10,511 nucleotides of DNA from Candidatus Dadabacteria bacterium (GCA_040289575.1 PSLL01000025.1:1203-11713), one strand, 5' to 3'; counted from the stretch's first letter, positions 2,263 to 9,539 are shown. Notes: generated by a model not told the origin, from the sequence alone. Program-made: numbers and translations.

Positions 2263-3864
2263 TCATATTATCTTTGACACGGAATCCATTTGTAAGATCC
2301 CTCCGCTTATAAGCGATTGAATCGCAATTCCAAACCCAAGAATGGTTATAACAACGGATGAGAGCAGAGGAAGGGTCTGGATTATTCTTCCTTCTCCGCT
2401 AAATCTTTCCATAAACCGCTTGGCATATACCATTGCTAACCCGATTCCCATGAGAATAAGCGCAAGCCCTGTGCTGAATGCCACAATAAGTATGAGTCCA
2501 AATCCGATTCTGTGGAGAGATATGGCACTTATAAGTACAATGAGTGCCTCAGGGCATGGTACTATCCCGCCGCTTACACCCAGAGCGAGAAGGCTTCCAA
2601 ATGTTACCTTCTCAGGGATTTCATGATGATGGTGTCCGTGATTATGTTTATGGTCATGTAAATGGTCATGATGTGTATGAGAATGTGAGCCGTGATGGTG
2701 TGTATGAGCATGGGAATGAGGGTGGTGGGAATGCCCATGATCAGCAAATCCCTCTCTTCGGAGACTGACAAGACGTTTAAAGAACAGGGATATGCCGATT
2801 ATCACGATCATAAGTCCCGAGGCAAACCCAAGCCATGGATAGAGCTTTTCGGGGAGTATGTATCGGGAGGCATAGAGAGTTACAAGCCCAAGCGCAAATA
2901 CGCCGATTGTGTGTGTGAGGGTAACTATAGTGCCGAGCAGAAGCGCATGTCCTGCCGTTCCGCGCGAGCCTACAAGGTATGCAGCTACTATGGTTTTGCC
3001 ATGACCGGGAGAGAGCGCATGAAAGGCACCGAAACCGAATGCTATGGCAAGGGAGAAGAGAATTATCGGGAATGTGAGGTCTTTCTTTGTCAGAATCTCT
3101 GTGAAAGAGTTTCTGGGAGTTTTTACACGTGGAGATTTGGAGTATTTCTCTTGAGCCTTTGTAGAAGCAATCCCTTTTCCAACGCCTAGAGAGAATGAAA
3201 AACTCGCCTCTAGGTCTTGAGGCGGGCTTGATATGGCGTCCTGTGGATAGCTCGATAATTCATTGCTTATATCTTCGGAAGGAGCCGAGGAGTCTGCTAT
3301 ATAAGTCTCTCCCTTTTTCCCTAAAACGATTATCTCTTTCCACCCGGTTCTTCCTAAGTAGTTGCTGTCCTTGTAGAATACCTTGTTTATTCCCAGTAAA
3401 TCACCCTTTTCAATATTCGCCACATACTCAACGGTTATTTTAGTTGTAGGAAGCCCTCCCGCACCGGGCGGAAAGACCATATTCTTTGATTCTACCTTAA
3501 GCTCCAGAGGTTTATCGTTCAACTCTAGAGTGAGTCCTTTCTTTAATTCCAATACCTTTCTAGATAGATATATCCTCTGCTCATCGGGGGATATTTCTTT
3601 GTCTCCATTTGTGTCCATATCAGTCCTTTCCCCGAATGAGGGAATCTCTGCCATATCAATTATGTATCTCAGCCTGATTATGTTCTCTTCCACTTCAATC
3701 TTGGAGTAATGATTGATACTGAAATTCCCCATAGGATGGGCAAGGGCCTTAGTGGGTGATAATGTAGACAGGTATAGTAAAGAGATCAAAGTAAGTACAT
3801 TGCCTATATAAAACACAAAGTTTAATTTGCCTTTGGCTTTATGTTTCAAAGATGCGTTTGACAT
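2263..3864 (-). CDS. RcnA/NiCoT (HoxN/HupN/NixA-related) Ni/Co transporter fused to an N-terminal exported domain, with His-rich loop, 533 aa
   Basis: RcnA-type motifs GAFHALSPGHGKT, TLTHTIGV and GGIVPCPEAL; multiple TM helices; 23 His in 39 residues (2623-2739). Signal-peptide-like N-terminus ends ALA|HPMGNFSINHY. Exact start uncertain (weak SD). Confidence 0.88.
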   Translation of the reverse strand: MSNASLKHKAKGKLNFVFYIGNVLTLISLLYLSTLSPTKALAHPMGNFSINHYSKIEVEENIIRLRYIIDMAEIPSFGERTDMDTNGDKEISPDEQRIYLSRKVLELKKGLTLELNDKPLELKVESKNMVFPPGAGGLPTTKITVEYVANIEKGDLLGINKVFYKDSNYLGRTGWKEIIVLGKKGETYIADSSAPSEDISNELSSYPQDAISSPPQDLEASFSFSLGVGKGIASTKAQEKYSKSPRVKTPRNSFTEILTKKDLTFPIILFSLAIAFGFGAFHALSPGHGKTIVAAYLVGSRGTAGHALLLGTIVTLTHTIGVFALGLVTLYASRYILPEKLYPWLGFASGLMIVIIGISLFFKRLVSLRREGFADHGHSHHPHSHAHTHHHGSHSHTHHDHLHDHKHNHGHHHHEIPEKVTFGSLLALGVSGGIVPCPEALIVLISAISLHRIGFGLILIVAFSTGLALILMGIGLAMVYAKRFMERFSGEGRIIQTLPLLSSVVITILGFGIAIQSLISGGILQMDSVSKII

Positions 3865-3895
3865 ATTAGCTCTAAAATTAGCCTTACCAACGCCA

Positions 3896-5239
3896 CTATA
3901 AGCCGTTTTCTGCCCTCTTCACCGAGAATTTACTCTCTATTTCCTTCAAAGTGCTCTTAGCAACATCCGAGTAGATTACGTGGAAATAGGGATTTGTAGA
4001 GATCGCCCGGCTTAAGTATTCCCTAGCCTTATCCATATCTCCGAGTTTATAATAAATCATCCCCGCATGGAAAAAAAGAATCGCATCCTTTGTCCCTAGC
4101 TTAAGGGATTCCTTTGAGGCTTCTAAGGCTTCCTTAAATTTATTATTTTTATACAAGGCCCACGCAAGGGTGTCATAAGTATAGATGTCCCTTCTAACCT
4201 CCAACTCTCTCTTTGCTAAATCAAGAGCCTCGTCTAATTTCATATCATGGTCGGCATAAAAAAGGGCAAGGTCTCTATTGTATATGATCCTGTTAATCTT
4301 GCTCAGCAGTCCTATATACTCTACAAGATCATACTGCTTTTTCGCCTCTTGTATCTTCCCTGTCTTTTTATATACGTCTCCCAGTGAAGATACAAAGAGC
4401 GGTAGAGGAATAACGCCTATGGCTTTTTTATATAGCTCTATTGCCTCTCCATAATTCTTCTCCACTGCCTTTACCTTAGCCAATCCGGCAAGTGCATAAT
4501 AATAGTTGTCATAGGTTTTAAGCGATGCCCTATACTGCTCCTCAGCCTTCTTCATATCCCCGGTTTTAAAATATAATTCCCCAAGCATAAACTGAGCCCA
4601 AGCAACATTTTCAGCAGATTGGCCGTATCTTATGGAGTATATCCTGCCCTGGTGAATCGCATTCTCCATCGCTTCTATGGCCCCTCTTATATCGCCCCTT
4701 AGCTCTTTTATGTATGATATGCGGCTGTATGAATAGAAGCTGGGCCTAATGGTCAGCATCGCCTCGTATGCCCTTTCGGCTTTATCATATTCCCCCAGTT
4801 CAGCATAGGCATCACCAAGAATACCATATGCATAGCTCTGCTCGGGTTTCATCTGTATGGCTTTTTGTGCATAGGGTAGGGCGGCCCGAAATTCGTGCTT
4901 GGATGCGCTCACCTGTCCCAGATACACAACCGTCGGGTAGTCATCTGGATTTAGCTCAAGGGCCTTCTTAAGTACCTCTTCGGCCTTGTTGTAGTAGGCT
5001 ATATCTCCTGTCTCTCTTGCTTTTTGTATATAGGATTCACCGAGCCTCATATACCCGGAGTAGTTATTTGGGTCTCTTTTTATCTGTTCCTGATATGACC
5101 TAATTGTAATATCCGTTTTATTCACATGTAACTGCTCTGAATACTGGTTTTCATTTTGGGCTTTCTCTTTCTTTGAATCGGAGCAGGCGGAGATAAAAAT
5201 AAGATGAAAAGCAATGATTAGTAAGATTAACCTCTTCAA
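3896..5239 (-). CDS. Tetratricopeptide-repeat lipoprotein
   Basis: Many TPR-like repeats (e.g. AYGILGDAYAELGEYDKAERAYEAML, AQFMLGELYFKTGDMKKAEEQYRASL). Lipobox ISA|C. TTG at 5239 (MKRLILLIIAFHLIFISAC) lies 10 nt from SD AAGGGG, which fits better than the track's TTG at 5248 (1 nt). Confidence 0.85.
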   Translation of the reverse strand: MKRLILLIIAFHLIFISACSDSKKEKAQNENQYSEQLHVNKTDITIRSYQEQIKRDPNNYSGYMRLGESYIQKARETGDIAYYNKAEEVLKKALELNPDDYPTVVYLGQVSASKHEFRAALPYAQKAIQMKPEQSYAYGILGDAYAELGEYDKAERAYEAMLTIRPSFYSYSRISYIKELRGDIRGAIEAMENAIHQGRIYSIRYGQSAENVAWAQFMLGELYFKTGDMKKAEEQYRASLKTYDNYYYALAGLAKVKAVEKNYGEAIELYKKAIGVIPLPLFVSSLGDVYKKTGKIQEAKKQYDLVEYIGLLSKINRIIYNRDLALFYADHDMKLDEALDLAKRELEVRRDIYTYDTLAWALYKNNKFKEALEASKESLKLGTKDAILFFHAGMIYYKLGDMDKAREYLSRAISTNPYFHVIYSDVAKSTLKEIESKFSVKRAENGL

Positions 5240-5269
5240 TATGCCCAAACCCCTTCTTTATAAATAGTA

Positions 5270-5290
5270 GGGGCGGTGCAATACCGCCCC
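5270..5290 (-). terminator. GC-rich hairpin between DUF4331 and TPR genes (partial terminator/mRNA stabiliser; GTAG-type REP-like)
   Basis: Perfect 8-bp stem GGGGCGGT-GCAAT-ACCGCCCC, 19 nt after the DUF4331 stop. The minus-strand tail TACTATTTAT is only a weak U-tract. On + the element begins with GTAG (5267-5270). Confidence 0.6.
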
Positions 5291-5309
5291 GGATAAGTAT
5301 TTGATCTAA

Positions 5310-7097
5310 TCAGCCCTTGCTGGCTTTTCTTGCCAGCCTTCTTCCAAATACAAAGAGTGTGGGGGCAAGAAGAATGGCAGTTATGCTGGCTAGACTGCCC
5401 ATACCTATATCGGTTCCGGCTGAAGCAATGGCGCATCCGCCACTATTATTGCCACTGCTGAGGTTCTCAGGCTCATTAGCATCAATGTGTCGGCTATCGC
5501 GTCCGCTATGGGCAAATGCCTCGTATGGGAATACATCCTGATACCCCATAGCATTGAGATTACCGCCACCGGGATCGTTTTTAGTGTTTTCGCCTCTATC
5601 ATTATGGTTAACACCATCACCAAGGAGGGTATTAGGGGCTTGATTGAAAGGAGCTCCAGCTAAGACGCCAGCCACTGCTCGCAGGGATATATCCGTCACA
5701 TCATCAAACACACGCCGACCATTGGGGAAACCGGCATTGTCTCCGGCGAGAAAGCCGATTCGTTTTTGTTGTCCGGGCGGTGTCGCGGAAATGCCGGTGT
5801 TGAGGCGTAAAAGATCGGATACAGGTCCTAACCCAAGTCCATTTGTTACAGGACAGGCGGGGCAGATAGGCGGTGCGTATGTAACAAGCGGCGCTAAATC
5901 CAGGCGAGGCGGATTTGGGACATTGATTCCAAATGCTGCGTTGAGTGCATGTGCTAAGACAGGATCAAGAAAGAAATTCGCAAACTGTGCATCATCCTTA
6001 GGCTCACTCATACTGAATTTATCCTTGAACCCTGTGCCTATAATCAATTCGTTGATCAAAGGGTTGCCCATACGCTGAATCTGTACCAGTGTGGCATCCT
6101 TTGGAATTGGCTGACCGAATGTCCTTGTTGTTGGACGGAGTGTTGACCCATATGTGCCTATCACGGCTTGGGTGTCGGTAGCCGGGTGTAATTGGTGGTC
6201 GCTGGTGAGCATAGCTATAGGCACTTCAAGTGCAATCGAGTTTACATTGAACCCTGATACGTCATCCCTGGCTTTGCCAACATTCTTCGTATCATTTGCA
6301 TCCTGTTGAGGGCTTAGCACTGCTACGCGTAGGTTAAATGTGTCAAATGCCGCTCCAAGGTCAATATAGAATGGATCGTCAACGGTTCCAGCAAACACAC
6401 GAGCGCCATTAAAGCAACCGCCTAGGGTGTAAATACCTTGTTGAGCCAGTGCTGCATAGTTGGGCATAGTCCTTGGGCCAACGTTTGATGGAACAGCAAA
6501 GAGGGTATGTCCATTCACATCAGTTGATGTTGTACATAGAACATTCCCGCTTCCATCTGTCATAGTCACAGTATAGTGCTGACGTAAACTCAATCCTTCA
6601 GAACCAGGACCATCGAGTGCAGTGATAGCCGGCGGTATAATTGCGGCGCCTACGGTAGAATTTCCATTAATATCCGTAGGGGCATTTGAAGGAGCGTTAA
6701 TACCGTTGCCGGCTCCGGCAAAACCGGTGAAAAGATTGGGTATTCGAATTTCAGTCACAAACCTAAAGACGAATCTGATGTCTTCTACTCCGTCTAGGTT
6801 GTTGTCAACATTCATTCTGTATTCTATCTCAGGATCGAATGGAAAGTAGTTGGGGCCATTAGAAGGCTCAAGCAGTGGATCAGTATTGAGAATCATTGTT
6901 ACAGTATTTGGAGCGGCGGGATCGTAGCTGACAAAAGTAAACCAGTCAGTTATGTCGGCTGTACGATCTAAAGCCGTGATTGGTGCCTCACGATGGTTAG
7001 CTGCATATGCGATGTTCTGGTGTGGTATTCTGTCTACGCTAAAAAGAAGCGCCGACACAAATACCAAACTAAGCCTAAGGAGCTTAATGGTTCTCAT
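5310..7097 (-). CDS. Secreted DUF4331-family protein with C-terminal GGC-TM-basic sorting tail, 595 aa
   Basis: DUF4331 motifs HREAP..DxTD, GPNYFPFDP, NVGPRTMPNY, VFAGTVDDPFYIDLG, GFNVNSIALEVP, QIQRMGNPLINEL, DLLRLN and GFPNGRR..DDVTDI. Signal peptide ends in AYA. SD AAGGAGG at 7108-7114. Confidence 0.9.
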   Translation of the reverse strand: MRTIKLLRLSLVFVSALLFSVDRIPHQNIAYAANHREAPITALDRTADITDWFTFVSYDPAAPNTVTMILNTDPLLEPSNGPNYFPFDPEIEYRMNVDNNLDGVEDIRFVFRFVTEIRIPNLFTGFAGAGNGINAPSNAPTDINGNSTVGAAIIPPAITALDGPGSEGLSLRQHYTVTMTDGSGNVLCTTSTDVNGHTLFAVPSNVGPRTMPNYAALAQQGIYTLGGCFNGARVFAGTVDDPFYIDLGAAFDTFNLRVAVLSPQQDANDTKNVGKARDDVSGFNVNSIALEVPIAMLTSDHQLHPATDTQAVIGTYGSTLRPTTRTFGQPIPKDATLVQIQRMGNPLINELIIGTGFKDKFSMSEPKDDAQFANFFLDPVLAHALNAAFGINVPNPPRLDLAPLVTYAPPICPACPVTNGLGLGPVSDLLRLNTGISATPPGQQKRIGFLAGDNAGFPNGRRVFDDVTDISLRAVAGVLAGAPFNQAPNTLLGDGVNHNDRGENTKNDPGGGNLNAMGYQDVFPYEAFAHSGRDSRHIDANEPENLSSGNNSGGCAIASAGTDIGMGSLASITAILLAPTLFVFGRRLARKASKG

Positions 7098-7158
7098 CCT
7101 TTTTTAACCTCCTTTTTTACTTACATATATATATGTTTGTATTTCGGTTTTGGATTTA

Positions 7159-7446
7159 TTACGAGGGTTTTCGGAGTATATATAAGGTTATGACTAAAGC
7201 GGTGCCTGCTATTCCTAACATTCCCAATATCCTTAACTTGGGATGTTTGTCGAATTCCTTAATTTTGGGCTTAAAATTTGGGTCTTTCTCCGCGAGATAG
7301 AATTTCTCCCCCGAATATTTAGGGATATGTAGGTATACTGCACTACTTCCTTTATAGTTCCATTTCTCGGTCAATCCAGAGGTGTATATAACAAGGCATA
7401 TTGCCCCAGCAATTATCCAAATCGCTATCAGTTTTACTACCTTCAT
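7159..7446 (-). CDS. Hypothetical small membrane protein (95 aa, two hydrophobic helices)
   Basis: ATG start, hydrophobic N-terminal (LIAIWIIAGAICLVIY) and C-terminal (ILGMLGIAGTALVITLYIL) segments. Fills the gap between the promoter and DUF4331. Confidence 0.7.
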   Translation of the reverse strand: MKVVKLIAIWIIAGAICLVIYTSGLTEKWNYKGSSAVYLHIPKYSGEKFYLAEKDPNFKPKIKEFDKHPKLRILGMLGIAGTALVITLYILRKPS

Positions 7447-7455
7447 ACTTCGGCA

Positions 7456-7484
7456 ATTGTATTTTGTATTTAAGTATGTGTCAA
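7456..7484 (-). promoter_or_regulatory. Sigma70-type promoter for the minus-strand cluster
   Basis: Minus strand TTGACA (7484-7479), 17-bp spacer, TACAAT (7461-7456): 11/12 consensus bases with optimal spacing. Confidence 0.8.
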
Positions 7485-9116: not shown

Positions 9117-9539
9117 TTATTGTCTAACCTCAAGTGTGCCTTCCATTCCCTTTTTTCTGTGATTTGCAAATATGCTCTTTTTATCACAGTAGAATTGATA
9201 TACCCCGGTCTTTGTGGGAGTAAAGCTGACCTTAACCTCTTTCCCTGGAGATATGTTCTCATCCACATTCAATCTTGCTTCTGTGCCCTTGAGCGTGAAA
9301 TTGTGGGGAACAATCTTTGAGACGCTCTTTAATGTGATCTCTACGGGTTTATTTACACTTACTATTATATGGTTGGGGCTAAAAGAGTAGCTGTCTACCT
9401 TAACTTCTAATCTCTGAACTCCGTCGGATGAGGGTTGAACTACAACAGGCTCAGATTCTTTGCTGGCTCCAAAGGCTAAAAGTACAGACAAAAATGCAAG
9501 AATAAATGAGATAATTAAAAAGTTGAATTTGTATTTCAT
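9117..9539 (-). CDS. Exported cupredoxin-domain protein (type-1 copper site), 140 aa
   Basis: Signal peptide; motifs YSFSPNHIIV, PHNF and GVYQFYC-x8-H-x4-MEG. SD AGGAGGA at 9548-9554. Confidence 0.88.
   Translation of the reverse strand: MKYKFNFLIISFILAFLSVLLAFGASKESEPVVVQPSSDGVQRLEVKVDSYSFSPNHIIVSVNKPVEITLKSVSKIVPHNFTLKGTEARLNVDENISPGKEVKVSFTPTKTGVYQFYCDKKSIFANHRKKGMEGTLEVRQ

Follow-up and report, generated by a model that had tools for sequence, protein, structure and literature searches.

A cassette of co-oriented genes in a 10,511-nucleotide stretch of DNA from Candidatus Dadabacteria bacterium (GCA_040289575.1, PSLL01000025.1:1203-11713; the whole stretch is called the window below, and positions are counted from its first letter) appears to represent one instance of an envelope module that is widely distributed and relays Cu(II) or Ni(II), possibly also Co; we put the probability of this reading at about one half. 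Its core consists of an exported DUF4331 protein, a tetratricopeptide repeat (TPR) lipoprotein, and a permease in which an exported N-terminal domain (N-domain) is fused to a membrane domain of the NicO/RcnA type. Our analysis documents the anatomy of these genes, their three-way linkage, invariant motifs at the N-terminal ends of the proteins, and a resemblance between the N-domain and the fold of Ang-1. Four minus-strand open reading frames (ORFs) lie behind a near-consensus promoter, just where the initial annotation had placed them, and its description of the gene set is borne out in every detail. The features of the three core genes are as follows.

5310..7097, minus strand: ORF2, exported DUF4331 protein, 595 amino acids (PF14224)
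6993..7001, minus strand: predicted mature N-terminus of the DUF4331 protein, Ala33-Asn34-His35 (Xaa-Xaa-His, of the amino-terminal Cu(II)- and Ni(II)-binding, or ATCUN, type), from the homologue motif and the -3/-1 rule
3896..5248, minus strand: ORF3, TPR lipoprotein, 450 amino acids (many TPR families in Pfam; lipobox)
2263..3864, minus strand: ORF4, NicO/RcnA-like permease, 533 amino acids (PF03824)
3079..3738, minus strand: exported N-domain of the permease, residues 43-262, anglerase-like, predicted mature start His43
2266..3078, minus strand: NicO/RcnA-like membrane domain of the permease (PF03824, hydropathy)
2608..2760, minus strand: His-rich loop of the permease, residues 369-419, 23 His in 51 residues

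In the proposed mechanism, the DUF4331 protein would be exported, and a signal peptidase cut would expose Ala-Asn-His, an ATCUN-type site that would bind metal at a flexible tip. The TPR lipoprotein would act as an adaptor or scaffold. The beta-sandwich of the permease, with a histidine as its first mature residue (His1) and a mono-histidine brace like that of the anglerases (the His1 beta-sandwich domains of HupE/UreJ-2 permeases; PMC12537917), would take or give the metal at the mouth of the RcnA-like NicO channel, and the 23-His loop of the channel, predicted to be cytoplasmic, would handle it on the inside. Cleavage sites, metal binding, the relay itself, the TPR role, which metal is handled and which way it moves all enter this scheme as predictions. 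Metal relay is preferred because of three metal-type N-terminal tips, two Ni/Co-type permease families, and partners in the outer membrane.

The linkage of the three genes is seen from both ends of the cassette. A search with an alignment of DUF4331 homologues (A1) against contigs representing one genome per species gave 588 relatives, of which the best 80 loci were kept; these are mostly from Acidobacteriota, together with Methylomonas, Competibacteraceae, one Planctomycetota record, and records labelled Delta-proteobacteria. ORFs in the loci were clustered with custom scripts, and cluster representatives were named by Pfam. In 70 of the 80 genome loci DUF4331 has a homologous TPR gene behind it in the same orientation; 6 of the 10 loci that lack one are cut within 320 bp, leaving 4 that are evaluable (70/74). 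Eighteen DUF4331-bearing stretches from the window's own phylum were added to the 80, and here the TPR gene follows DUF4331 in 14/14 evaluable stretches. A metagenome scan with an N-domain alignment (A2) gave 572 relatives, and the best 80 loci were kept. Directly upstream of the N-domain permease these have a TPR gene in 46 of 52 evaluable cases; a co-oriented DUF4331 gene is found upstream in 27 of 30 evaluable cases, and the remaining 3 comprise two loci with DUF4331 downstream and one without DUF4331. Across 120 genomes of the phylum, DUF4331 is present in 22 and the N-domain in 5, all of them within those 22; the two are adjacent in three of the five, on two contig ends in one, and on separate contigs in one.

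These linkage counts are drawn from related genomes and best matches, so the samples are not independent. On a FastTree phylogeny of DUF4331, well-supported branches require the NicO label to have changed 7 times or more and the HupE2 label twice or more, and because these changes are repeated, the link between DUF4331 and a permease is not a single inherited accident. The neighborhood of DUF4331, TPR and Ni/Co transporter genes that the initial annotation had suggested is thus real and strongly conserved, with HupE/UreJ-type variants included, and the possibility that a census would find no enrichment of such neighbors clearly fails (70/74; 27/30).

The identity of the third gene was classified at 95 loci with a DUF4331 ORF of at least 400 amino acids, of which 75 were evaluable and 20 (20/95) were too short to judge; two pairs of records among the loci are identical (L003 = L180 and L076 = L170). 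The third gene is an N-domain-NicO fusion in 11/95 loci (11/75 evaluable), an N-terminal-His HupE_UreJ_2 fusion (PF13795, E 8.5e-47) in 8/95 (8/75), and a CarboxypepD_reg outer-membrane barrel in 25/95 (25/75); 31/95 (31/75) have none of these in the stretch fetched. Such counts bear on the proposal of the initial annotation that the RcnA-like permease expels Ni or Co, which its exported domain and a TPR scaffold then use to metallate DUF4331. The three genes are tightly linked, the sole NCBIfam match of the permease is to the RcnA efflux subfamily (121.9 bits), and there are secreted enzymes that receive their metal from exporters of the same broad superfamily or from some P-type ATPases. We nevertheless regard export for loading as unlikely: 31 of the 75 evaluable loci lack a permease in the stretch fetched and 25 carry a barrel instead, the other permease partner belongs to the HupE/UreJ type, whose anglerase fusions have been proposed for uptake, and the single conserved histidine of DUF4331 lies at a flexible N-terminal tip, where an ATCUN site would load spontaneously. 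Because that single histidine is N-terminal, DUF4331 is also unlike a buried Ni/Co active site in need of a maturation machine. The neighborhood of the earlier proposal is retained, and several independent features of the sequences (His1 on the exported domain, Xaa-Xaa-His on DUF4331 and the His-rich loop) also point to a transition metal, whereas export in order to metallate DUF4331, though conceivable, is not the best fit to the anglerase likeness and to the loci with a barrel or without a permease.

ORF2 matches PF14224 with an E value of 2.9e-101 and 340.2 bits (cut-off 27) over profile positions 2-417 of 421, and DUF4331 is single-copy in its own genome. One search returned more than 7,900 homologues, the best about 55-65% identical, in records labelled with several phyla. 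Hydropathy indicates an N-terminal signal segment and one C-terminal transmembrane segment. The motif HRE[AS]P occurs in 119 of 120 homologues, where the His-ending tripeptide is ANH (97), ASH (18), SNH (3) or AGH (1); the residue at -1 to the predicted cleavage is A, S or G in 118/119 and that at -3 is small or aliphatic, a pattern like that of signal peptidase I. The -3/-1 rule is the sole basis for placing the cleavage site, from which the mature protein would start with Xaa-Xaa-His; as predicted, it has the sequence attributes of an ATCUN site, namely a free N-terminus, a residue other than Pro at position 2, and His at position 3. The PF14224 model begins exactly at this point. Among the DUF4331 ORFs of the loci, 109/116 contain [AS]xH[RK][ED][AS]P, and four of the other seven show A-S-H, S-D-H or A-D-H in the stretch printed. 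His35 is invariant in alignment A1 and is the sole conserved His of the protein. The retention of the predicted tip even in divergent members is one pointer to metal.

It is tempting to go further and regard DUF4331 as a large, unrecognized family of bacterial ATCUN "metallophores," from which the TPR adaptor would hand Cu(II) or Ni(II) to a His1-NicO permease or to outer-membrane transporters; we offer this as a tentative extension, with the odds somewhat against it. Structural comparison gives little guidance: an AlphaFold2 (AF2) model built from a 27-row alignment was poor (predicted local distance difference test, pLDDT, 61.7), and this low-pLDDT model retrieved nothing from the PDB with Foldseek at E <= 0.001. 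VIA-align in its wide setting gave only generic immunoglobulin-like or fusion-protein matches (best Z 8.0, root-mean-square deviation [rmsd] 8.4), a comparison of the DUF4331 profile with PDB sequences gave flagellin only (E 0.05), and the ESM Atlas gave no usable match. A literature search, with most subscription journals outside its reach, found no paper that mentions DUF4331.

The second pointer to metal is the permease. Its hydropathy profile opens with a signal segment, after which come some 220 exported residues (43-262), three hydrophobic peaks, the His loop and four overlapping peaks; the last four are read as three helices, which would give six transmembrane helices (3 + 3). Since the N-domain is exported and three transmembrane segments follow it, the His-rich loop is expected to be cytoplasmic. 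PF03824 (NicO) matches residues 272-515 (E 6.9e-14, 52.3 bits versus a cut-off of 27.7), the sole NCBIfam match, PRK10019, covers residues 273-517 below its cut-off of 195, and there is no Pfam match to PF13795 (HupE/UreJ-2). No Pfam model matches the exported N-domain. A region search with this domain gave 2,206 proteins, and among the matches listed nearly all have NicO; in the 2,669 cluster representatives obtained by an exhaustive search, the domain is always N-terminal. The motif A/HP[LM]GNF[ST].N.Y (the stroke marks the predicted cut) comes straight after the signal peptide, AHPxGNFS..HY is invariant in alignment A2, and the His1 motif is visible in the 150 best N-domain cluster representatives, bar a few with miscalled starts. 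Because the motif directly follows the signal peptide, the mature permease should start at His43. The HupE_UreJ_2 fusions beside DUF4331 in Gammaproteobacteria begin A/HK.SDSY (alignment A3), and His1 is invariant in both types of permease fusion (NicO and HupE_UreJ_2).

An AF2 model of the N-domain (pLDDT 78.6) has as its top match 9GCE, a structure with Cu bound of the Ang-1 domain from a HupE/UreJ-2 protein (PMC12537917), both with Foldseek (E 1.2e-4, probability 1.00, TM scores 0.37/0.48) and with VIA-align (Z 8.7, rmsd 3.8, 142 residues aligned). Behind it come the zinc binders ZrgA (Z 7.8) and PA4063, and the best matches are all periplasmic metal binders.

Three further observations concern NicO permeases. 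Long forms (L077:1824-4319; proteins of 750-830 amino acids) have, behind the RcnA-like half, a second NicO-like half with an H-x4-D-H motif, and show three PF03824 stretches. A gene for a truncated (bacterial-like) globin directly follows the N-domain-NicO permease at eight loci, including L097:1653-2015. A second, canonical NicO gene (258.8 bits) is present in the genome from which the window comes (G000, contig C22:7081-7937).

In the TPR protein the signal segment closes with the lipobox I-S-A-C; only 6/125 TPR homologues have a lipobox. In a TPR alignment (A4), identity to the window protein is 31-87% for 62 of the 64 other sequences and 17-19% for the two from HupE loci; R78, H118 and W217 are invariant. 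On these alignment grounds we place the window protein in a specific family of TPR orthologues that is linked both to DUF4331 and to the permease. Nine loci have two TPR paralogues, one by DUF4331 and one by the permease (L023, L028, L040, L051, L071, L077, L115, L144 and L161), and in three the two are fused into one ORF of about 910-940 amino acids (L117, L121 and L152); the window has one TPR gene, of the permease-linked type. In seven loci without a permease (L162-L164, L167-L169 and L172), which come from one family of the window's own phylum, a His-rich tip such as A/HEDGHHHE opens the TPR protein after the signal peptide, a further pointer to metal. Complex prediction for DUF4331 (33-545) with the TPR protein (24-449) from custom alignments gave scores of 0.00 and 0.01, the mark being 0.32, and the tool returned no verdict. 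We do not accept the apparent DUF4331-TPR fusion at L125:618-3275 (an 885-residue ORF) as a Rosetta-stone fusion: it is probably due to read-through, loss of a stop codon or an error in sequencing, since the ORF still contains the start codon and the signal anchor of the TPR protein, and in the relatives L087 and L103 a stop codon occurs at this point.

The regulators of these loci admit an explanation with no metal role, in which DUF4331 and the TPR protein belong to a SigK-like regulon under an extracytoplasmic function (ECF) sigma factor and serve in envelope stress or in a surface structure, the conserved N-terminal peptide is a signal for docking or processing, and permeases are linked to them only indirectly. 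Genes for an ECF sigma factor and an anti-sigma factor of the RskA or ChrR type are the commonest regulators nearby, adjacent in 27/80 DUF4331 loci and in 53/180 loci altogether, the window not among them. In the own-phylum family with His-tipped TPR proteins, the cluster also includes ECF sigma/anti-sigma genes, fasciclin, an exported MsrB and MsrA (the last by sequence motif only). DUF4331 is moreover very strongly conserved over about 500 residues, mostly Asp, Asn and Gly and including a D-N-x-x-D-G-x-x-D loop; these positions may be structural calcium-type sites, which would suit a module of this kind. Such an account leaves unexplained both the His-rich TPR tips and the occurrence of two Ni/Co-type permease families that each carry an invariant N-terminal His domain, and we consider it quite unlikely.

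The same neighbors, MsrA, MsrB and fasciclin under ECF sigma control in some loci, would also agree with detoxification or buffering, in which an RcnA-type efflux pump expels Cu or Ni and DUF4331 and the N-domain hold it as periplasmic sinks that prevent its re-entry; RcnA-RcnB is a loose parallel. The RcnA-like domain and the His-rich loop can be read in this way, as can the sigma-70-like promoter of the window cassette, where there is no starvation regulator. A 595-residue protein with one site would be a poor sink, however, and the TonB-dependent or outer-membrane partners and those of the HupE type suit uptake better, so this seems very unlikely. Within the metal-relay reading, capture and import are only slightly favored over export as the net direction, by analogy with the anglerases and from the HupE-type and the TonB-dependent or barrel partners. 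Locus L177 has a bona fide TonB-dependent receptor (Plug plus barrel) 3.6 kb from the permease.

As to which metal is moved, the ATCUN site and the likeness to Ang-1 would favor Cu or Ni, and the permease families Ni or Co. The window's own genome, which is 95% complete, has four COX2 matches, which point to a demand for copper; its only match to the NiFe-hydrogenase family is weak and partial (30.5 bits) and possibly a complex I subunit. Its enzyme content is suggestive of copper at most and is not decisive.

Several results weigh against a metal relay, or against particular parts of it. Neither urease nor HypA was found in the genome, and no Ni superoxide dismutase was found, the latter a weak negative given that the search was also blank in all control genomes; with nickel enzymes not found and COX2 present, nickel is no better supported than copper. 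A simple carrier that binds metal at its tip does not explain the strong conservation of DUF4331 over some 500 residues. For the permease, the RcnA subfamily is the sole NCBIfam hit of the membrane domain and favors export. The margin of 9GCE over ZrgA is just about 1 Z unit, the A2 profile found no PDB chain, 9GCE included, at E <= 1, and hhalign of the window-type N-domain with HupE-linked N-domains gave a probability of 0.85%, no detectable similarity. Because sequence similarity is undetectable, the domain is called anglerase-like here and not a member of the anglerases. The combination of ECF sigma with fasciclin, MsrB and MsrA suggests a regulon that responds to envelope stress and not to a shortage of metal. 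Finally, no operator-like inverted repeat was found around the promoter of the cassette, and no metal-sensing riboswitch was found near the cassette in the window or in eight related loci (Rfam, gathering threshold).

The remaining features of the cassette are these.

7456..7484, minus strand: sigma-70-like promoter TTGACA-17-TACAAT, 11/12 positions matched
7159..7446, minus strand: ORF1, 95 amino acids, two transmembrane segments (hydropathy; no Pfam or NCBIfam match)
5313..5432, minus strand: C-terminal tail of the DUF4331 protein, consisting of GGC, about 20 residues, a transmembrane helix (residues 566-584) and an Arg/Lys cluster
5270..5290, minus strand: GC-rich hairpin between the DUF4331 stop and TPR start codons, 8-bp stem with 7 G-C pairs, weak T tail

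The intergenic gaps within the cassette are, in gene order, 61, 61 and 31 bp, whereas the permease gene lies 182 bp from the gene that comes next. Promoter-like sites in the whole region number 9, against a shuffle mean of 12.1, and so are not in excess. The -10 hexamer ends just 9 nt ahead of the ATG of ORF1, which has no Shine-Dalgarno sequence; on account of this spacing, ORF1 would be either leaderless or an untranslated part of the 5' untranslated region. Homologues of ORF1 are confined to the closest relatives (L002, L003 and L180), which places it outside the conserved core. The hairpin behind the DUF4331 gene could terminate transcription in part or stabilize the mRNA, and could raise expression of DUF4331 relative to that of the TPR protein and the permease. 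The GGC-transmembrane-basic tail of DUF4331, which occurs in only a subset of homologues (alignment A1), looks like a sorting signal from its composition; it has no match among the NCBIfam sorting-domain models.

According to Pfam, the cassette is flanked by genes for a phosphofructokinase, Sir2, a metallo-beta-lactamase fold protein and a cupredoxin, which are unrelated to it; the cupredoxin-like protein is secreted and is encoded at 9117-9539 (minus strand), 1.7 kb from the cassette. Elsewhere, two group II intron copies in an Acidobacteriaceae locus (L038:682-2190, minus strand) and a c-di-GMP-I riboswitch in Competibacter (L057:891-981, plus strand) are both far from the cassette. Four sequencing runs are listed as containing the stretch, all of them soil-metagenome DNA, with no RNA run among them.

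If the Xaa-Xaa-His tip binds copper or nickel, DUF4331 would be a family-wide bacterial ATCUN protein, of which we know of no earlier description. The relay, if true, would give a function to thousands of "RcnA-like" permeases now annotated as efflux pumps, and would extend the anglerase concept of 2025 to a second permease family and to two obligate partners. The carriers include soil Acidobacteriota, methanotrophs and other environmental bacteria, so the module would bear on the acquisition or control of trace metals. Should the metallophore proposal also be true, the module would constitute a complete, previously undescribed trans-envelope pathway of metal acquisition in many phyla, with His1-NicO as a third class of anglerase-permease.

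Among known systems, E. coli RcnA (PRK10019) shares with the window permease a membrane domain of the NicO family and a His-rich loop after the third transmembrane segment; in E. coli RcnA this loop lies between the third and fourth. The window permease scores only 121.9 against the cut-off of 195 and has an exported N-domain of about 220 amino acids, whereas the PRK10019 model is just 283 positions long and RcnA is not known to have an exported N-domain of this sort. The partners also differ, being RcnR and RcnB for RcnA and DUF4331 and the TPR protein here.

In copper uptake by CopC-CopD and YcnI-YcnJ, copper is bound by the N-terminal His of an extracytoplasmic protein or domain that adjoins an inner-membrane permease or is part of the same chain. 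These systems are unrelated to that of the window in their folds and permease families, and are not known to have a TPR or ATCUN-type partner.

ATCUN sites are Xaa-Xaa-His N-termini that bind Cu(II) or Ni(II), as in serum albumin and histatin-5. The predicted mature DUF4331 protein is like them in its free amine, non-Pro second residue and His at position 3. The familiar examples are eukaryotic peptides and proteins, whereas the site here would be family-wide in an exported bacterial protein, with both cleavage and binding predicted.

The closest parallel is with the anglerases. HupE/UreJ and NicO both belong to the broad LysE superfamily. The anglerase and the window domain are alike in being exported beta-sandwiches with a predicted invariant His as first mature residue, fused N-terminally to a metal permease, and 9GCE is the best fold match; in Gammaproteobacteria the DUF4331-TPR pair itself adjoins His1-HupE/UreJ-2 fusions. 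They differ in that the window domain is fused to NicO (PF03824) and the anglerase to HupE/UreJ-2. A literature search on HupE with methanotrophs and copper listed nothing relevant. Anglerases bind Cu2+ and Ni2+ (the dissociation constants of Ang-1 are about 74 nM for Cu2+ and about 220 nM for Ni2+) and have been proposed to fish metal for uptake, feeding their own permease (PMC12537917). CopC is cited in that paper; NicO, RcnA, TPR and DUF4331 do not occur in its text, and in its source data DUF4331 is only a rare neighbor (counts of 1 and 2) (PMC12537917). Relative to the known anglerase-permeases, the module described here is new in its two undescribed obligate partners, DUF4331 and the TPR protein.

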